IMG/VR virus record: IMGVR_UViG_3300026292_000602
Span: 1-64,000 of that record
From: a virus
Direction: 5' to 3' (one strand)
Length of the DNA: 64,000 bases
Below are positions 5,054 to 63,052 of the stretch, piece by piece. The notes under the pieces were generated by a model. That model did no database searches. It saw only the letters and a program-made list of their open reading frames with translations, and was not told the origin of the DNA. Positions within the stretch are counted from its first letter, which is position 1. Each line of letters opens with the position of its first letter. Made by a program: the position numbers and the translations under genes.

Positions 5054-5131
5054 ACTATTACTTATTTTCTTGAATCTTTTGCCAAATAGAGTCTTGGCTT
5101 TGTTCTTGGTTTTGGACGTAATTTTCGGATT

Positions 5132-6925
5132 CTATGACTGTTGTGAAGTCGGGTCTGAGTCTTCCGGATTTGTCTGAGCCCGGATTTGCTTGTTGCTTAC
5201 CTTTGTTATGTAATTGGTTCCCTTCACCGTTTTTTTTTGAGCTTCGTCTATTTGTTTAACTTCTTCGCCATAAAAGATTCTGTTGACTGTGTCAGGAAAC
5301 TCTTTATCTTTTGCTTTTTCTTTATCTTCTTTAGCAACTTCTTCTTCAGCCGCCTCTACCCATTTATTCCATTTTTCAATATCTTGTGCTTCTTCAATAA
5401 CATTATCTTCTTTTTCTAAAGCCTCTTGCATTTCTTCATCATCTGGAATTGAAGGTAAAACTTCTGCTACTTTAGGCTCTGGACGAGGTTCTAGCTCTTC
5501 TTCCATCTGTTCGCTTACAGTTTTTTCTTCTTCTTTAGCTTCTTCTTCTATTTCTTCAGCAACTTTTTCTAGGTCTTCTTCTAGTTCTTGCTTTGTTTCT
5601 TCTTCAACTTCTTCTATACGTTTTTCTACTTCACGTTCTACTTCTTCAGTATCTTCTTTTTCTTGTATAGCTTGATTATCAATCTTTTCCTGAATTACAG
5701 GGTGGGTATATGGTGTGTTATATGATTGTTGAATGTCTTCACCTTCCCAAGTATCTTTACCGCTTGGGGGGTCGTTAGGATTTTCTGGATCTGGATCGGA
5801 CTTTGGGGGCAACTTCGGGCCCTTGTCCTCTCTAACGTATTGGAATGTATATTGTGAAGCAATTAAAAGTAATACTGCTAATGGATCAAATACAAATATA
5901 ATTATTATAATAACCCAACGTACTGCTGACTCTAGTAAGTCTTGGTTTGCTTGTTCACCATATATAAACTCTGCAATATACTTAATAGGACCTACTTCAG
6001 CTTCAAGTTTTCTGTAAGTCTTTTCGTAAGCAAACTTCTCTTCTCTAACACCATCAATAATAGTTTGTTCTTTATCAATGAATGTTTCTAATTCTGTTAC
6101 ACGAGCATCTAAGTCTTCTGTTTTAGCATTAGCTTGACCACGTAAATCTTGTATTCTCTCTTGTATTGCTTTAATATCATCTGCATACTTGGCATCAACT
6201 TTAGCAAGTGCTTCATTTAAGGCCGCATTAATTTTCTTTATTTCTTTTTGGGCATTACTTGCCACACTTAATTCATTAGCTTTAGCTTGTGCTACTGCTT
6301 CATCAAACTTCGCACCGCCACCAAATGAACCTTCAAATCTATCTTTGGCCGCTTGTATATCTGCGTCTTTACGTTCTTTAGCTTGTATTAGTCTTTGGTT
6401 CTGTAATTCTATTTGTTTATCAAAGTCTATTCTTACATCATCTTTTTCAGATTTAATTAATATATTAATTTTGTCTAATTCTTTTTGTTCACGATCAATT
6501 AAGTTATCAACACGAATATCTTCACCACCTAATAGACGTTCCATTTCTAATGTCCAACGTTCTATTTTACCTTCGGATCGTGCCATCTTATCTTCGATGG
6601 TTTCAATAAGAGCGACTTGCTCTTGACTCATTGATGTTTGTTCTATGTGGGCTTTAGATAAAAAGCCAAAGATACCCATACTTGTAATAAACATTAATAC
6701 AAATACTGCTAGGGCAAGATAAGTTCTTAACCACCAGGTTGCTCGTTGCCAATGTCTATGGAGCCATACTGCCGTGACTAGTTTACCGACTTCTAATGAT
6801 ACACCCATTATTATAATAGGTATAACAGCCGCCGCGAAAATTGCCGCCAATCCAGCGACCGAATAGTATATAGCTACCGCACTAATCGTTAATGCAGATA
6901 GAAATGTTAGTATTCCTAGTAACAT
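5132..6925 (-). CDS. Membrane-anchored coiled-coil protein with acidic tail; likely -1 frameshift extension to 5058
   Basis: N-terminal TM helices, long heptad region, further TM segment, E-rich tail; A9 run at 5230-5238. Confidence 0.8.
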   Translation of the reverse strand: MLLGILTFLSALTISAVAIYYSVAGLAAIFAAAVIPIIIMGVSLEVGKLVTAVWLHRHWQRATWWLRTYLALAVFVLMFITSMGIFGFLSKAHIEQTSMSQEQVALIETIEDKMARSEGKIERWTLEMERLLGGEDIRVDNLIDREQKELDKINILIKSEKDDVRIDFDKQIELQNQRLIQAKERKDADIQAAKDRFEGSFGGGAKFDEAVAQAKANELSVASNAQKEIKKINAALNEALAKVDAKYADDIKAIQERIQDLRGQANAKTEDLDARVTELETFIDKEQTIIDGVREEKFAYEKTYRKLEAEVGPIKYIAEFIYGEQANQDLLESAVRWVIIIIIFVFDPLAVLLLIASQYTFQYVREDKGPKLPPKSDPDPENPNDPPSGKDTWEGEDIQQSYNTPYTHPVIQEKIDNQAIQEKEDTEEVEREVEKRIEEVEEETKQELEEDLEKVAEEIEEEAKEEEKTVSEQMEEELEPRPEPKVAEVLPSIPDDEEMQEALEKEDNVIEEAQDIEKWNKWVEAAEEEVAKEDKEKAKDKEFPDTVNRIFYGEEVKQIDEAQKKTVKGTNYITKVSNKQIRAQTNPEDSDPTSQQS

Positions 6926-7001
6926 ACTGCTCCCTCTGTATTCTTTGTATAACATATTTAGCCTAATTTCTCCTTCTTCAGAAAATAGTTTAACAGTTAA
7001 A

Positions 7002-11636: not shown

Positions 11637-11713
11637 TGGCGGGAGTGAAGGGACTCGAACCCTCGGCCTTCCGCGTGACAGGCGGACGCTCTAACCAACT
11701 GAGCTACACCCCC
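11637..11713 (-). tRNA. tRNA-Asp(GTC)
   Basis: Canonical cloverleaf, CCA encoded. Confidence 0.95.
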
Positions 11714-11723
11714 ACTATTTTAG

Positions 11724-11798
11724 TGGTAGTCCCTAGGAGAATCGAACTCCTCTTTGCGGTATGAAAAACCGCTGTCCTAACCGATAGACGAAGGGACC
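11724..11798 (-). tRNA. tRNA-Glu(TTC)
   Basis: Cloverleaf with anticodon arm GCGGU-UUUUCAU-ACCGC, CCA encoded. Confidence 0.93.
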
Positions 11799-11806
11799 AC
11801 TTTAAG

Positions 11807-11882
11807 TGGTGGAGCACGAGGGAATCGAACCCACGACCTCCTGAATGCAAATCAGGCGCTCTCCCAACTGAGCTAGTGCCCC
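11807..11882 (-). tRNA. tRNA-Ala(TGC)
   Basis: Cloverleaf with G3-U70, CCA encoded. Confidence 0.95.
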
Positions 11883-13126: not shown

Positions 13127-13204
13127 TCTACTTACTCCTTCTCACCTAGCTAGATATTTATTTGTAGTATTCTAAAAGTATTATAGGCTTTGTCTATGTA
13201 GAAA

Positions 13205-13505
13205 TAGACGCAACGTTTCTGTTGCTAGGTACGTTGCCAACCCCGAGTGATTATGCCGCTAGGGCAAAATCCTCATTTACCGCAGTTACTGGCGCAGAAA
13301 AATCTACGAAAGTAACGTTGGTTAGTGCATTATCGTTTGCATCTATAACGTTTGTTCGCGTTAACGGAGCTTACATCCCGGTAATCTCGTTCAACCTTAA
13401 CAAGCCAGTCGATCCTATTTCTACCCCGTAGGGGGTGTATTGAAATGGTGGAGTAGCCGGGTATCGCACCCGGGTCCTGCTCTTGTGACATACGTTGCTG
13501 TCATC
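13205..13505 (-). ncRNA. ssrA: tmRNA, circularly permuted two-piece type
   Basis: Acceptor piece ...CCCGGGUGCGAUACCCGGCUACUCCACCA (3' end 13446) lies upstream of the coding piece GGGGUAGAAAUAGGAUCGAC (5' end 13427); tag ANDNALTNVTFVDFSAPVTAVNEDFALAA at 13340-13251. Outer boundaries approximate. Confidence 0.93.
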
Positions 13506-13577
13506 AATTACAGTAATATTTAGCCTTAATATGCTACTATTATAGGAAAAGAGATAACTAATGTCAAAGGAAAAACA

Positions 13578-23191: not shown

Positions 23192-23513
23192 CTTCCCGCC
23201 TTTCATCTACCCAGGGGTGTTCCCAACTTGTATAATAAGGATCATTAAAGTTAGGATCGTCCATACCTTCAACTCCTTTTACTTCTGGGATATAATGTTT
23301 AAGCATATTCTCTACGCCAAGTTTTAATGTTACTGTACTACTAGCACAGCCTGAACAAGCACCACTTAACAACATAGTCGCTATTCCGGTTTCCTCATTA
23401 AAGTTTTGTAGTTCTATTACTCCTCCATGCCCTGCCACTGCTGGTTTAATTTTAGATTCTACTACTTGTTCTATCTCTTTTATTATTTCTTCTTTTGATC
23501 TATCTACTATCAT
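23172..23513 (-). CDS. NifU C-terminal domain (Nfu) Fe-S carrier
   Basis: IKPAVAGHGG...LSGACSGC..S..TLK.GVE. Confidence 0.92.
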   Translation of the reverse strand: MIVDRSKEEIIKEIEQVVESKIKPAVAGHGGVIELQNFNEETGIATMLLSGACSGCASSTVTLKLGVENMLKHYIPEVKGVEGMDDPNFNDPYYTSWEHPWVDERREDGDGKD

Positions 23514-24103
23514 AATACTATATTACTTCTGTCTCTACCATCGCAATTGATAGTAAAGGTTATTCTATTTCCATTACTTTTACTTGCCTGTGTTTTGTGT
23601 GTTAACCAGCCAGGGAAAAGTAACACGTCATTTGTATTTACATTAACTTCTTTCCAGTAGTCATGTATTGTTTTCTCAGGTATACGTGAGTAGTGTGTCC
23701 AGTTAGTTCTCATTAATTGTTCGAACATTAAGTTACCACTATCTTCTGGAACTTGTACATAAGCCGAAACCACTACGTTAGTTGAACCATGATCATGAGG
23801 TAATGTATGAGCATTGATATTATGTATGTTAGTCCAACTACCCGTAGCGACAACGTCTGTATACTGAACGTCCCATTCACGTAAACAAATTTCTATCTTG
23901 GGTCGTAACCAAGTCATAAATTCTTGATTGCACTCCCACATATGAGGTGGGTTAGGATGGCCAGCAGTTGACTTGCCACCATCTGCTTCTGTTTGATGAA
24001 ACTCCGCTTCTTTAGATTGGTAATCTAAAAATGAGTCTACATCGAATCCGGGTGTGTAATTATATTTCCAAACTAGGTTTGGAACGATCTTTACTTCGCT
24101 CAT
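23510..24103 (-). CDS. TIGR02466-like 2OG-Fe(II) oxygenase
   Basis: W.N...HDH...LFPGWLTH...RI. Confidence 0.8.
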   Translation of the reverse strand: MSEVKIVPNLVWKYNYTPGFDVDSFLDYQSKEAEFHQTEADGGKSTAGHPNPPHMWECNQEFMTWLRPKIEICLREWDVQYTDVVATGSWTNIHNINAHTLPHDHGSTNVVVSAYVQVPEDSGNLMFEQLMRTNWTHYSRIPEKTIHDYWKEVNVNTNDVLLFPGWLTHKTQASKSNGNRITFTINCDGRDRSNIVL

Positions 24104-24153
24104 TGTTATACCTCATTACCTAATAGTATATAACAAAAAAACTAAAATGTCAA

Positions 24154-24495
24154 TTAAAGATTGGCGTTGGTTGCTCGTTTCGCCATTTGGTCTACTTGGT
24201 CGGGAGCATTACTTTGGACTGGTGCATCAGCATCAGCTTCTTTTTTAGTAGAAAGGCTAACACCTTTTTCATCAAAGTTCTTTACTAGATTTGCTAATTC
24301 TGGATTGGCATCATATATTTGTTTGAATCCATCATAGTCAAACTGTTGCATATCCATATTTTGCATTAATTGGTTAAGTGCTTCGAATGAAAGATAGGCA
24401 GGCTGATCTTGAGAATCAGCACTACCTATAGTGTTTCTAAAAATTTGAACGAGTGCGTCTTTGGAATTTGTTGCCTCAGTTACTTTACTGAAGTC
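24154..24495 (-). CDS. Hypothetical protein; open frame extends up to the slippery site and is probably the -1 frameshift extension of the upstream gene
   Basis: Frame is open from 24495 (DFSKVTEATNSKDAL...) into the annotated MQNMD ORF with no ATG/GTG/TTG before 24366. Confidence 0.7.
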   Translation of the reverse strand, partial: DFSKVTEATNSKDALVQIFRNTIGSADSQDQPAYLSFEALNQLMQNMDMQQFDYDGFKQIYDANPELANLVKNFDEKGVSLSTKKEADADAPVQSNAPDQVDQMAKRATNANL

Positions 24496-25355
24496 TTTTT
24501 TTTTGAAGTTTCGTTAGTCTTTTTTTTTGAGTCAGTAAGCATTTGGCCTAAGCGTCTGCTTCTTTGTACAGATTCACGTTTTTCTCTATCTGCAACTTCT
24601 TCACCGCCTGTTGCTGGTTCACTTGCTCCGAATTCATCTGCTACTGGTTCTTGTTCAGCACCTGCGTCCGCATCAACTGTTGGTTCCATATCTGCAACTG
24701 GATCCTCTGCAGGAGCCTCAGGGTCTGTTCCCATAGTTGCCGGAGCGCCTTCGCCTGTTACGATAGCTACGCCACCTGTCATTGCTTCTCTTGTAGTTTC
24801 AAAAACTGTATATAGATTTTCTAATGCTGGTTTTACAGTATTAATGAATTCTTCGCTCTTTTCAGAACCAAGTTCGTCTCTGATCTTATCGCCTAATTCT
24901 AGCATTGATTCAGTTTGCATTTCTGCTGTGTCTTCCATCCAGCCTGTAATTCTGTCAACCATGTCTTTAGCCGCCATAACCAAAGTAGCTTCTTCTTCAG
25001 CACCTTCTTTTACTTCTTCTTTAGCTTCTTTGTCTTTGATTGCTTTTTTCATTGGTTCTTTTTTGTCGCCATCTTTGTCAGCGTCAATAAAGTCTGGTTT
25101 TGCTTTTGATCTTTCTGCAATTTCTTGATTAATAACGTCTAGGAACATTCTGCCTTTTTGGTAAGCATCGCTAGTATGTACAGTATCAAAACTTTCATTA
25201 GTTTCAACTGCTGATAGCTGTGTACGTAATCTATTACGTGCATCTTCTAGCTGTTCATTAGTAAAATCATCTAAACGTAACTTTGTTCCGAATGTTTTTG
25301 CTAGTGACTCATTTAAGTCTTTAGCTGATACAATTTTAAGTTCTGTTATTTTCAT
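24480..25355 (-). CDS. Acidic putative head/scaffold-associated protein
   Basis: MKITEL start, E-rich, PDFIDADKDGD motif, late promoter motif upstream. Confidence 0.7.
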   Translation of the reverse strand: MKITELKIVSAKDLNESLAKTFGTKLRLDDFTNEQLEDARNRLRTQLSAVETNESFDTVHTSDAYQKGRMFLDVINQEIAERSKAKPDFIDADKDGDKKEPMKKAIKDKEAKEEVKEGAEEEATLVMAAKDMVDRITGWMEDTAEMQTESMLELGDKIRDELGSEKSEEFINTVKPALENLYTVFETTREAMTGGVAIVTGEGAPATMGTDPEAPAEDPVADMEPTVDADAGAEQEPVADEFGASEPATGGEEVADREKRESVQRSRRLGQMLTDSKKKTNETSKKKTSVK

Positions 25356-25389
25356 ATCTCTTGTTCCTAACTGTTATAGTTATTTATCA

Positions 25390-25833
25390 TCAATCGTCGA
25401 ATACATACTCGTCTAATTGGCAAATATAATCCCAAGTATGGTCTTTAGCTAGTTCAAACCGCATTTCCGCGGCTTCTCTACGGAATTCATCGTCTGTAGA
25501 CTCTATAGTATGCTTATGGAAAATACTGTCCATATAGTGTTTACCCAGGTTTTGATCCAATCTAAGCACCTCTACTTCTAGATTTGGGTTATTTCTAGCT
25601 CTTGCTTTAGAGTATGCTATTGCTCCACGTTTACTAAAGGTTGTAGCAATTCTTTTATGTGTCTTAACATCAAATAGTATGAACCCACCTTCTTTTTTGG
25701 ATTCTCTAAATATCGTATTCTTTATGCGTACTGACTTACCTTTACCTTTTACGTATGGCATATGAACTCTCTTGAGTCCACTTTCCATTATGTCGTCTAA
25801 GTCTGCTTTAAGTTTAGTCGGGTTCATTAGCAA
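25390..25833 (-). CDS. Hypothetical protein
   Basis: ORF in late operon. Confidence 0.7.
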   Translation of the reverse strand: MLMNPTKLKADLDDIMESGLKRVHMPYVKGKGKSVRIKNTIFRESKKEGGFILFDVKTHKRIATTFSKRGAIAYSKARARNNPNLEVEVLRLDQNLGKHYMDSIFHKHTIESTDDEFRREAAEMRFELAKDHTWDYICQLDEYVFDD

Positions 25834-26020
25834 CTACCACAATCATTCCATTACGATTAACTTTAGTTATTAGAGCTTTTCTAATAAGTCCTTCGATAAC
25901 GAATTGTTCTCTTTCAGGGAAACTGTTCATTGGTAACGGATTTTGTACTTTTGCTAGTACTTCTTTTTCTTCGTTACTTGTTTGAACGGTGAATTCTCCA
26001 ACTAGATCATTTATTTTCAT
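25814..26020 (-). CDS. Hypothetical protein
   Basis: MKINDL start, coupled stop/start. Confidence 0.7.
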   Translation of the reverse strand: MKINDLVGEFTVQTSNEEKEVLAKVQNPLPMNSFPEREQFVIEGLIRKALITKVNRNGMIVVVANEPD

Positions 26021-26475
26021 TAGACTACCTTACCTGCCATTGGATTAGTTCCTACGGCTTGGTCTGCTTTCTTTTTGACTATTGAATCTAGTTCTTTTCT
26101 ATTATATACAAATGCTTGAGGCTCTCCTGGTTTGGCCTCTGGATTTTTCAATGTTACTTGATCTCCTTTAACATCATCTATATCGAATTCAGTTTCTTTT
26201 CCCCCTTGAGTGGGTATTGCTATTTGTTTACCTTTTTTAAGTATAGCTTGTGAAACTTTGCTTTGTGCTTGTTTTACGGCTTTCACTGCCTTTGCGCCTA
26301 TGCCTTTTGCGGCGTTGGCACCGATCTTACCTAATTGAGCTCCCATCTTAACGCCAGCTTTTGCCGCCGCTGATCCCATCTTCGCACCAACACGGCCAGC
26401 AACGGCTCCTATTGCAGGTACTACTTCAACAATCTCTTGTTCTTTGATAGGTGATGTAAATTCTTTAGCTCTCAT
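26020..26475 (-). CDS. Hypothetical Ala/Lys/Gly-rich protein
   Basis: MRAKEF start, coupled stop/start. Confidence 0.7.
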   Translation of the reverse strand: MRAKEFTSPIKEQEIVEVVPAIGAVAGRVGAKMGSAAAKAGVKMGAQLGKIGANAAKGIGAKAVKAVKQAQSKVSQAILKKGKQIAIPTQGGKETEFDIDDVKGDQVTLKNPEAKPGEPQAFVYNRKELDSIVKKKADQAVGTNPMAGKVV

Positions 26476-26837
26476 TATTTTCTTCTCGGTATTTTTCTTC
26501 CAGTTCTAAATTTCTTTCTTCTTGTTGGAGCTCTTTTATATTTCTTCTGTGTCTGTGGCTTGTTAGCTTTTGTAAGTCGTTTAGTTAATGCTCCTGCTCT
26601 TTTAATACGTGCAGTCTTAACTTTCATTACACTAGCCTTACGTGCCTTAGCTCTCTTTATATTTATAGCACTTCCAACTCTCTTCTGTGCGTTACAGGTT
26701 GACGGTTGTGCTACAATTCTGCCCTTACGTGATCCACTTGTACATCTGTACTTACGAACCATTTTACCTTTATTTCTTCCCCAGATTTGAATAACACCTT
26801 CTTTGATAGATTCAGTCATAATCTCGTTGATCTTCAT
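26475..26837 (-). CDS. Highly basic protein (paralog 1)
   Basis: IW.R..K.VRKYRCT.G.RKGRIV motif shared with the neighbour. Confidence 0.75.
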   Translation of the reverse strand: MKINEIMTESIKEGVIQIWGRNKGKMVRKYRCTSGSRKGRIVAQPSTCNAQKRVGSAINIKRAKARKASVMKVKTARIKRAGALTKRLTKANKPQTQKKYKRAPTRRKKFRTGRKIPRRK

Positions 26838-27121
26838 TATCTTCTTCCGGCTTTATTCAATGCTTGTACTCTACGTGAAGCTGGGTTAGTACGTTTTGTA
26901 CGTCTAGCCTTCCTCATCATACGAGCACCTATTCTGGCTCTAGTTCTTTTTAATGTTAGTCGTGCCTTCATATTAGGAGCCGCAAAGCATTGTGACATCT
27001 GTTTAACAATACGTCCTTTACGTCTACCTACAGTACAACGGTACTTACGAACGACCTTTTTACCAGATCGAGCCCAGATTTGTTTTTCATCTATTGGTTC
27101 GTATATCTCACGTACTAGCAT
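26837..27121 (-). CDS. Highly basic protein (paralog 2)
   Basis: Same motif as its neighbour. Confidence 0.75.
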   Translation of the reverse strand: MLVREIYEPIDEKQIWARSGKKVVRKYRCTVGRRKGRIVKQMSQCFAAPNMKARLTLKRTRARIGARMMRKARRTKRTNPASRRVQALNKAGRR

Positions 27122-32019: not shown

Positions 32020-32093
32020 GCGGGTGTAGTATAATGGTATTATGACAGCCTTCCAAGCTGATGATAGGGGTTCGATTCCCCTCACCCGCTCCA
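32020..32093 (+). tRNA. tRNA-Gly(TCC)
   Basis: Cloverleaf, U73, CCA. Confidence 0.95.
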
Positions 32094-32101
32094 TATCCTT
32101 T

Positions 32102-32178
32102 GGCAGAGTAGCTCAGGTGGTTAGAGCACCGGACTCATAAGCCGGGGGTCGCAGGTTCGAATCCTGCCTCTGCTACCA
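32102..32178 (+). tRNA. tRNA-Met(CAT), elongator type (Ile2 not excluded)
   Basis: Cloverleaf with loop CUCAUAA. Confidence 0.88.
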
Positions 32179-32180
32179 AT

Positions 32181-32254
32181 GTTACCGTGACAGAGTGGTT
32201 ATGTAGAGGATTGCAAATCCTTGTACGGTGGTTCGATTCCGCCCGGTAACTCCA
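32181..32254 (+). tRNA. tRNA-Cys(GCA)
   Basis: Cloverleaf, U73, CCA. Confidence 0.95.
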
Positions 32255-48559: not shown

Positions 48560-48633
48560 GGGGGAGTGGTATAATGGTATTACACGGGTCTCCAAAACCC
48601 TAGATCAAGGTTCGATTCCTTGCTCCTCTGCCA
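48560..48633 (+). tRNA. tRNA-Trp(CCA)
   Basis: Cloverleaf with loop CUCCAAA, G73; G1-U72 and G3-U70 wobbles. Confidence 0.9.
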
Positions 48634-62879: not shown

Positions 62880-62964
62880 GCTCCCATGATGGAATAGGTA
62901 GACATAACAGACTTAAAATCTGTGGCCAATTGGCGTCCCGGTTCGAGTCCGGGTGGGAGTACCA
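62880..62964 (+). tRNA. tRNA-Leu(TAA)
   Basis: Class II cloverleaf, A73, CCA. Confidence 0.95.
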
Positions 62965-62975
62965 ACCTTTGATAT

Positions 62976-63052
62976 CTACCCGTAGCTCAGCAGGATAGAG
63001 CAACGGTCTTCTAAACCGTGGGTCGGGGGTTCGAATCCCTCCGGGTAGGCCA
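62976..63052 (+). tRNA. tRNA-Arg(TCT)
   Basis: Cloverleaf, CCA. Confidence 0.95.

Follow-up and report, generated by a model that had tools for sequence, protein, structure and literature searches.

Most of the well-documented programmed frameshifts of phages concern the tail-assembly chaperones. In phage lambda, a conserved -1 frameshift close to the 3′ end of the late gene G yields GT, a minor isoform extended at its C-terminus, in a fixed ratio to the shorter one; the position of this arrangement is conserved across very diverged phages. The A_AAA_AAG heptamer of Escherichia coli dnaX likewise sets the ratio of two isoforms, tau and gamma, with a common N-terminus. Runs of nine A or T residues can also slip efficiently in vivo during transcription, as in dnaX of Thermus thermophilus, the type III secretion genes mxiE and spa13 of Shigella, and IS elements (PMC5009743). 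Here we describe a locus with features of each of these systems, found in a 64-kb stretch of viral DNA (positions 1 to 64,000 of IMG/VR record IMGVR_UViG_3300026292_000602; hereafter the window). A late gene of 291 codons, open reading frame 1 (ORF1), ends there in two tracts of nine adenines followed by guanine (A9G), and beyond the second lies a start-less -1 frame for a further protein domain. By analogy, the site would function like the -1 frameshifting of dnaX and IS elements, like A9 transcriptional slippage, or like both, and it is homologous to none of them. It sits in a different gene from the documented phage frameshifts, one for a probable head-interior protein of very abundant uncultured ocean phages, and is present across hundreds of viral contigs.

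The resemblance to lambda G/GT covers the conserved -1 shift near a late-gene 3′ end, the minor extended isoform, the fixed ratio and the conserved position. In contrast to lambda, the gene module is another (there is no adjoining tape measure gene), the proteins and their likely head-interior role differ, and in sister lineages the extension is a gene of its own. With E. coli dnaX the locus shares the in-phase heptamer, a nearby 0-frame stop and the logic of an isoform ratio, and some clades of relatives add an upstream Shine-Dalgarno (SD)-like element together with a downstream stem. Unlike dnaX, the shifted frame here specifies the long product, the run has nine adenines rather than six, no homology is apparent, and the window itself has no SD-like element and carries its hairpin 2 nucleotides (nt) past the site rather than 6. 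The systems of A9/T9 transcriptional slippage share with the locus the exact count of nine, conserved in length whatever the phase; they differ in that a sister clade here manages on six adenines and that an AAG codon is kept against codon bias. The IS1 signal A_AAA_AAC also has its counterpart in four relatives, which read TCA AAA AAA AAC and then a stop, a form absent from the window.

All features of this locus lie on the minus strand. ORF1 (24480-25355) would supply the short isoform and carrier, an acidic, all-helical protein of 291 amino acids (aa), and its 3′ end reads ...CTT ACT GAC TCA AAA AAA AAG ACT AAC GAA ACT TCA AAA AAA AAG ACT TCA GTA AAG TAA. A first-pass annotation, made from the sequence alone, had noted an A_AAA_AAG site twice, 24 nt apart, at the end of this gene, with a -1 slip at the first copy meeting a stop at once and one at the second opening a frame of about 113 codons whose first 43 offer no start; the present analysis confirmed each of these readings. 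Both copies are in phase with ORF1 as A_AAA_AAG. Site 1, the dead-end slip site, comprises the 15-mer TCAAAAAAAAAGACT at 24516-24530 (A9 at 24520-24528), and site 2, the productive one, comprises the same 15-mer at 24492-24506 (A9 at 24496-24504). The window holds exactly two copies of this 15-mer, where shuffling predicts 0.03 matches and gave two copies in 0 of 100 shuffles. Past site 1 the second codon of the -1 frame is already a stop (GAC TAA, with the TAA at 24514-24516), and a slip there would produce residues 1-279 plus Asp (280 aa). This recalls Thermus gamma, since stops lie close in both other frames and slippage at site 1 would truncate the protein. A -1 slip at site 2 would instead join residues 1-287 to 113 further residues (400 aa), and in the 0 frame translation ends at the TAA at 24480-24482. 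The -1 extension (24154-24495, 113 codons plus stop) opens GAC TTC AGT AAA GTA and is devoid of ATG, GTG and TTG before codon 44, which is its earliest ATG (24366) and falls inside a predicted helix without an SD sequence. The bare heptamer AAAAAAG is not rare in this AT-rich genome (40 seen in the window against 32 expected), so the motif alone proves nothing and its significance has to come from comparative data.

The annotation had regarded a different run length in reads as fatal to its reading; A9/A9 recurs in independent IMG/VR, DNA and RNA-library contigs. Both lengths were seen again in an independent IMG/VR contig (L001/L016), and among the Logan assembled contigs that served as read data, in which minor variants are hidden, two span both runs ungapped, one from DNA (run X3) and one from an RNA library (run X16). 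The 291-aa product is recorded from 37 contigs (P0001-P0004), and the stretch is present in DNA runs dated 2014 to 2025 from at least 11 studies. The doubled allele is not an assembly slip.

Comparative evidence was drawn from 112 distinct junctions in related viral contigs, gathered in five scans. Nine adenines followed by G make up the great majority (88); the others have ten adenines then T (6), nine then C (4), eight then G (3), six then G (5), or no run at all (6). A run of eight to ten adenines is present at 101 of the 112 junctions, and at not one of these does the downstream domain have a start codon; past runs of at least eight adenines, the first 14 residues contain zero Met. At every run-bearing junction, matches to hidden Markov models (HMMs) place a homolog of the downstream domain in the -1 frame, with the 0-frame stop 0-12 codons on. 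Of the first 94 distinct junctions, 72 have the heptamer A_AAA_AAG in phase, and phase-0 variants give A_AAA_AAA. The six no-run junctions, L235 and the distant L009-L014 clade are organised as two ordinary genes, the second with an ATG and a leader of its own (MKIFEL in L165, MRVSDI in L237/243/252, MLVSDI in L235, MKVSEIL in L280, MKVYEL in L325 and MRFAEI in L009-14). L235, which has A6G only, had been considered as a heptamer-only frameshifter and was rejected on account of this ATG and leader. The strict run-or-ATG dichotomy is the strongest evidence for the run as a recoding signal. Homologs with an ATG and without an A-run, which the first-pass annotation had named as a finding that would speak against it, do exist, solely as sister lineages, and the either/or pattern supports recoding. 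Judged by these comparisons, recoding at site 2, a conserved -1 site that the family has where this late gene ends, is strongly supported.

The same junctions bear on an arrangement without any recoding, in which the extension is a separate gene with a non-ATG start near the run and the A-rich tract is a landing or re-initiation site. Separate genes do occur in the sister lineages, and GTGA comes after the run at four junctions (L170, L220, L245 and L140), where its GTG overlaps the TGA stop and would start a perfect M-(K/R)-I-S-E-V leader. Elsewhere, however, the first codon past the run is mostly GTA, GTC, GGN, GAC, ATA or CTA, none of them a start; the window has no ATG, GTG or TTG ahead of the intra-helix codon 44; and protein-level conservation covers the stretch from the run to the first possible start. 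We consider a separate gene very improbable. The four GTGA junctions could use re-initiation, slippage or both, and they may be intermediates between the two-gene and frameshift states.

Codon usage in the run also supports recoding. Synonymous Lys changes that would break it were found in 0 of 53 distinct genes, compared to 16-40% use of the minor codon at six other invariant Lys columns. The third Lys is encoded by AAG, though AAA accounts for 72% of Lys codons in the family, and the codon before the three lysines (TCA, CCA, GGA or CGA) varies in meaning with A as its final base. These patterns indicate that the run is under selection at the nucleotide level. A MAFFT codon alignment misaligned the KKK columns, and all run statistics were therefore anchored on the run itself.

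The start-less part of the -1 frame aligns as protein across all clades, and over codons 4-43 its ratio of nonsynonymous to synonymous substitution rates (dN/dS) against close relatives is 0.28-0.46. On this evidence the start-less frame is a conserved, translated protein domain, and the earlier proposal that the -1 frame past the second copy encodes a long isoform is upheld. Pfam, PDB sequence profiles and Rfam gave zero matches for ORF1 or the extension. An AlphaFold2 (AF2) model of the extension, with a predicted local distance difference test score (pLDDT) of 74, shows a long helix and then a compact alpha/beta unit, and winged-helix domains head the Foldseek list (MCM8 WH, JetABC, Stn1, BirA) as weak matches (E 0.1-1, template modelling score 0.3-0.47); its core is accordingly described here only as winged-helix-like. 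A search with the domain profile recovers 647 representative proteins, of which many are stand-alone. The stand-alone homologs are 110-130 aa long, the profile match begins at residue 6-10, and the leaders before it have the form M-[KR]-h-x-[ED]-h. Further matches are truncated gene calls of 65-75 aa from the first internal ATG, as in the window. P0122 (261 aa), P0125 (463 aa) and P0128 (771 aa) carry the domain with its own leader as the N-terminus of a far longer protein. The winged-helix-like domain may be seen as a mobile module, found on its own, at the N-terminus of a larger protein or fused by frameshift at a C-terminus.

Among the best 150 of the 647 representative domain matches, none was a C-terminal in-frame fusion of about 400 aa. 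Homologs of 367-459 aa were examined as candidate in-frame fusions and rejected, as they have central insertions and every one of them terminates in ...SKKK followed by 0-8 residues; P0193 appears to be a chimeric gene call. The absence of the fusion from these matches bears on whether the runs are homopolymer errors in a single in-frame gene, or whether run length varies in the DNA as a phase switch. Homopolymers are error-prone and mutable, and two RNA-library contigs end exactly at the ninth A: X15 at 24496 (site 2) and X17 at 24520 (site 1), from two metatranscriptome studies. However, the 88 distinct A9+G junctions come from many samples and assemblers, the in-frame A10+G form was found in 0 lineages among the 112 distinct junctions, the DNA contig of run X3 crosses both runs unchanged, and internal priming by oligo-dT explains the RNA contig ends equally well. 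An artefact or DNA-level switch is scarcely credible. The RNA-library contigs cover ORF1 on the 5′ side only, with nothing over 24100-24453, and the ends of X15 and X17 were not counted as slippage or as a transcript end, which oligo-dT internal priming, strain branching or library DNA would equally fit. This end pattern could also mask true heterogeneity in run length.

In the model that we propose, most translation would end at the 0-frame stop and yield the 291-aa acidic protein, and a minority of chains would shift to -1 on the A_AAA_AAA_AAG of site 2, adding the 113-residue winged-helix-like domain to form the 400-aa isoform. The slip would be mainly ribosomal, by tandem re-pairing of tRNA-Lys on A_AAA_AAG aided by the hairpin that follows, and RNA-polymerase slippage on the A9 run would probably add to it. 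Weighing the comparative data, we lean towards a mainly ribosomal slip, which would be a case of programmed -1 recoding in uncultured giant T4-like marine phages, and both kinds of slippage probably contribute. Two groups of relatives speak for the ribosome. L172/L312/L320/L327 retain only GGA AAA AAG TCG TAA, lack an ATG and have the same K-K-V-x-E junction; L017, L030, L043 and L202 have a second in-phase A_AAA_AAG, with six or seven adenines, just before the stop. The first-pass annotation had assumed a purely ribosomal slip: its in-phase heptamer stands, whereas the ribosome as sole mechanism is less secure, A9 also being the classic tract of RNA-polymerase slippage.

Should the polymerase be the main agent instead, reiteration on A9 would produce A10 transcripts whose standard translation gives the fusion, and the same event at site 1 would give a truncated product. 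We regard this as a plausible account, if one that we hold with less conviction. The A9 length matches the 9-bp RNA:DNA hybrid of the host core polymerase, and in many relatives a nascent-RNA hairpin 5′ of the run would stimulate or pace slippage. A number of observations favour it and weigh against a mainly ribosomal slip. Nine or ten adenines are kept at 98 of the 112 junctions, which is 98 of the 105 recoding junctions, despite amino-acid change, phase shift and loss of AAG. The run extends to nine beyond the heptamer whichever codon precedes it; where it is shifted by one base it still has nine (TCG AAA AAA AAA GAC TAA; L051, L062, L063, L086 and L160); and ten junctions without AAG have at least nine (A10+T and A9+C). 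Neither the product nor heterogeneity in the RNA was seen, the RNA data being assembled contigs in which minor variants are hidden, and this weighs against the main model.

RNA structure upstream of the run is a further point for the polymerase. In three clades an 8-bp triloop hairpin ends 1 nt before the run, a position that fits RNA-polymerase slippage better than ribosomal frameshifting, and the stems differ by clade: GGUCAGUU/AACUGACU, GGUUUGCU/AGCAGACU and AAGUAGC/GCUACUU. In the first two clades the stem covaries: pairing is kept in 93% of cells, both partners have changed at 4 of the 8 pairs, and none of 500 shuffles scored as high. Among 39 distinct upstream sequences, 19 fold better than 95% of their synonymous recodings. 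In Roseiflexus IS630, slippage is driven by a hairpin directly 5′ of the slip motif (PMC5009743). The stable hairpin directly 5′ of the run in relatives of the window resembles it, in a geometry of terminator hairpin plus tract. Unlike the locus described here, IS630 slips on U5C5 and by deletion, and at both sites of the window the hairpin is missing.

The window itself differs from these relatives. It contributes 4 of the 9 unpaired cells in the covariation count, and there is no hairpin directly 5′ of either site, the upstream fold being -4.7 kcal/mol at site 1 (z = 0.08) and 0 kcal/mol at site 2. The ancestral upstream hairpin at site 1 has been destroyed by two synonymous changes (GGT CAG to GGC CAA), in an upstream context that is otherwise ancestral; the loss speaks against the polymerase as main agent here. 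Downstream of site 2, the window has a hairpin G.CUUCAGU-AAAGUA-ACUGAGGC (24473-24495), which opens at the G of AAG and has the 0-frame stop in its loop and 3′ arm. A CUUCAGU/ACUGAGG hairpin, closer than typical stimulators, had been recognised in the first-pass annotation; it is real and modest, with 7-8 bp beginning 2 nt past AAG and a fold of -7.9 kcal/mol (z = -1.9). It beats 98% of synonymous recodings of the -1 frame (p = 0.02). Site 2 retains the ancestral downstream hairpin, and one C-to-U change mends its internal mismatch. For a mainly ribosomal slip, two features of the window are unfavourable: this hairpin is nearer to the heptamer than classical stimulators, and the upstream hairpin and an SD-like element are both absent.

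In other clades the structures are closer to those expected of a ribosomal site. Downstream structure reached p < 0.05 against synonymous recodings in 17 of 46 sequences. The clade whose ORF1 ends in GTILSKKK* (L058/L090 and L068-71) has its stop right after AAG and strong stems 4-6 nt downstream (p = 0.003-0.04), and the SSEAT clade (L047 and L054) has GGAG/GAGG 10 nt before the heptamer. The stimulator of dnaX lies 10 nt before its heptamer. The candidate stimulators thus differ by clade, comprising upstream hairpins, downstream hairpins and SD-like loops.

These downstream stems at classical spacing and the SD-like element at dnaX spacing argue against a slip made mainly by the polymerase, and other evidence does so too. 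The four-member clade keeps only an in-phase A6G and has no ATG, three junctions have A8G, and the third Lys is AAG in spite of codon bias. The nine adenines are themselves not diagnostic, because the tRNAs in the E, P and A sites can all re-pair on A_AAA_AAA_AAG, and ribosomes have been reported to slide on poly(A). The RNA-library contig over both runs has A9/A9, though contigs hide minor variants, and the window shows no avoidance of A9/T9 runs (5 against 2.9 expected).

A mainly ribosomal slip at site 2 would leave the role of site 1 to be explained. Alignment with the single-site relatives L018 and L020 reveals a 24-nt in-frame insertion within 24493-24519, its placement ambiguous owing to the repeat. 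In the window's clade, the segment from A9G to the conserved TAACTGAGGC is hypervariable and its length is always a multiple of three nt: 0 nt in L138-type sequences, 12 nt in L018, 18 nt in L024, 21 nt in L017 and L030, where it includes a second, productive A6G, and 36 nt in the window, where it includes a full second A9G. The doubling is therefore one outcome of recurrent small duplications around the run. The 24-nt insertion in this indel-prone tail would have made the second tract, site 1. As GAC TAA follows in the -1 frame, slips at site 1 give a 280-aa dead-end product that is nearly the ancestral short form. Site 1 would remove a fraction of the flux, f1, ahead of site 2 and so lower the yield of the long form somewhat. 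We consider it most likely that site 1 is tolerated as a by-product and is not a regulator under selection. Acquisition of site 1 by recombination with the TCG-A9-GACTAA clade was also considered and dropped, as the common 16-mer A9GACTAAC may be due to chance. This 16-mer (window 24511-24528) is identical at the L063 and L086 junctions, where GAC TAA is the normal 0-frame end.

A second, distant clade has a comparable layout. L150, L279, L159, L155 and L152 carry an A9G 48-57 nt upstream of the productive run, and the -1 frame past this upstream A9G closes after 2 codons; in L152 the run is in another phase and still has nine adenines. Members of the clade are 71-81% identical to one another and about 60% identical to the window, and the architecture therefore arose at least twice. 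A conserved dead-end A9G in this second clade weighs against site 1 being a mere by-product. Estimated from family codon use, the frequency among lineages at which S-K-K-K is encoded with at least nine adenines in a row would be about 0.43, and that of exactly A9G about 0.13, which makes the second clade only suggestive.

This second clade is part of the case for site 1 as a selected decoy, which would divert a set fraction of events into the dead end and lower the ratio of long to short form. Of the earlier proposal that the first site drains shifted ribosomes, the dead end follows from the sequence and stands; a selected tuning of stoichiometry is unproven, and we think it rather unlikely. 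The dead end itself is direct from the sequence, the allele is widespread and stable across the contigs, runs and studies listed above, and the lack of an A10+G fusion in any lineage suggests that the isoform ratio matters. The synonymous changes that destroyed the hairpin beside site 1 would weaken a decoy and would fit fine adjustment. On the other hand, within the window's clade the doubling is confined to one near-clonal allele (99-100% identical proteins). Close relatives vary freely in this segment, and L017, L030, L043 and L202 have two productive sites, with the opposite effect. The truncated products also differ between the two clades, with 11 against about 17-20 residues lost and no common protein logic, and the drain leaves a factor of (1 - f1), a small change unless slippage is very efficient.

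A broader and more speculative view, which we consider unlikely, is that the A9G tract, the clade-specific hairpins and the optional dead-end copies form an evolvable 'dosing' cassette that combines polymerase and ribosome slippage. Such a cassette would set the capsid copies of a DNA-binding-like cargo domain that is carried by a leader and freed by a protease at a hydrophobic-x-Glu (h-x-E) site; the dead-end tracts of the window and of the L150 clade would then be selected attenuators and the extra productive heptamers of L017 and L030 enhancers.

The dead end at site 1 and the productive site 2 lie in a gene whose product may be destined for the capsid interior. The internal proteins of phage T4 are brought to the prohead core by a short N-terminal capsid-targeting sequence, which can load foreign cargo there as well; the gp21 protease then cuts after Glu in motifs like ITE and LTE, as it does in Alt at ITE-6 and LTE-619 (PMC3012670, PMC5694885). 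ORF1 begins with the leader MKITELKIVSAKDLNE (25308-25355), which fits M-K-h-x-E-h and contains an h-x-E site, L14-N15-E16, that is invariant in the family alignment. The four genes next upstream begin MKINDL, MRAKEF, MKINEI and MLVREI, leaders of the same type. By motif match, the ORF1 leader and its cleavage-type Glu site thus resemble those of a T4-type head-interior protein. Residues 5-7 of the extension (24475-24483) are V-T-E, a candidate prohead-protease site or relic of a leader. Of 87 distinct extensions, 86 have an h-x-E motif that starts no more than 8 residues past the junction, where shuffles gave a mean of 18 and a maximum of 26. In 45 extensions it begins at the first residue past the junction, so that the fused chain K-K-K-V-x-E equals a stand-alone leader M-K-h-x-E minus its Met.

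These motifs suggest that the downstream domain, having lost its own start and leader, would reach the prohead only as a passenger of the carrier, and the prohead protease may then release it at the h-x-E just past the junction. In a split-gene relative, a 201-kb contig encodes a gp21-like protease (PF03420, E = 1.5e-26) and a gp23 capsid protein (PF07068, E = 2.3e-99). The likeness to T4 internal proteins and Alt therefore extends from the M-K-h-x-E-h leaders on a late-gene block and the h-x-E sites to a gp21-like protease in a relative. In contrast to the route proposed here, loading of a domain through frameshift fusion has not been described for T4, and there is no sequence homology to IPI-III or Alt. 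Two considerations count against this part of the model. The capsid-targeting and protease-release steps may operate as outlined, yet both are read from motifs, and neither a gp21-type protease nor gp23 turned up on the 82-kb fragment to which the window belongs (23% complete).

Small late genes with this type of leader stand four in a row at 25814-27121 on the minus strand. Two of them, at 26475-26837 and 26837-27121 (minus), encode very basic paralogs with a common VRKYRCTxGxRKGRIV and are candidates for packaged, DNA-binding internal proteins.

ORF1 has more than 5000 homologs in marine metagenomes and a weak PHROG match to 'virion structural protein'. Its AF2 model is all-helical and of low confidence (pLDDT 62, predicted template modelling score 0.29), and disordered acidic linkers are predicted. 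A candidate late promoter of T4 type, GATAAATA (25381-25388, minus), matches 7 of 8 positions of TATAAATA about 25 nt before the ATG. No cultured phage in the collection carries the gene. Against cultured-phage records, tblastn gave no match and blastn only one patch of 83 nt, the sole DNA-level match to a cultured phage. This patch (window 25018-25100, minus; L015 4001-4083) is 77% identical to part of the gene for a hypothetical protein of Prochlorococcus phage P-TIM68, which is otherwise unrelated, and encodes a calcium-loop-like motif, DxDKDGDKKEPMKKA.

A literature search found no published description of the A9 site. New here are the doubled layout of a dead-end plus a productive tract, its origin and the second clade with the same layout, as well as the covarying upstream hairpin and its loss in the window, the heptamer-only clade, the h-x-E motif at the junction and the run-or-ATG dichotomy across the 112 junctions. 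The family amounts to a natural experiment, in which the same domain is either a free-standing gene with a leader or a start-less frame reached by a slip on nine adenines. It samples layouts with one site alone, with a pair of productive sites, with a dead end ahead of a productive site, and with just the heptamer. The hairpins on either side of the run, which differ by clade, are material with which ribosomal slippage can be separated from polymerase slippage and tandem-site tuning can be tested. For annotation, gene callers now split the locus and report a truncated ORF of 70 aa from the first ATG.

Several observations concern the surroundings of the locus. One base past the extension stop lies a near-consensus sigma-70 promoter (24125-24153, minus; TTGACA, a 17-nt spacer and TATACT; 11 of 12 matches), and the extension therefore ends at a transcription-unit boundary. 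The promoter precedes a gene for a 2-oxoglutarate-Fe(II) (2OG-Fe(II)) oxygenase-like protein (23510-24103). A further A9 run (5230-5238, minus; GCT CAA AAA AAA ACG) lies 33 codons before the stop of ORF 5132-6955, which encodes a 607-aa membrane/coiled-coil-like protein; the alternative frame 5058-5255 is open for 25 codons beyond the 0-frame stop. Nine tRNAs, none of them for Lys, are found in the window (11637-11882, 32020-32254, 48560-48633 and 62880-63052). ARAGORN also reports a permuted, two-piece gene resembling that for transfer-messenger RNA (tmRNA) at 13160-13542 (minus), with the tag AVNEDFALAA, and a permuted tmRNA would point to an alphaproteobacterial host.

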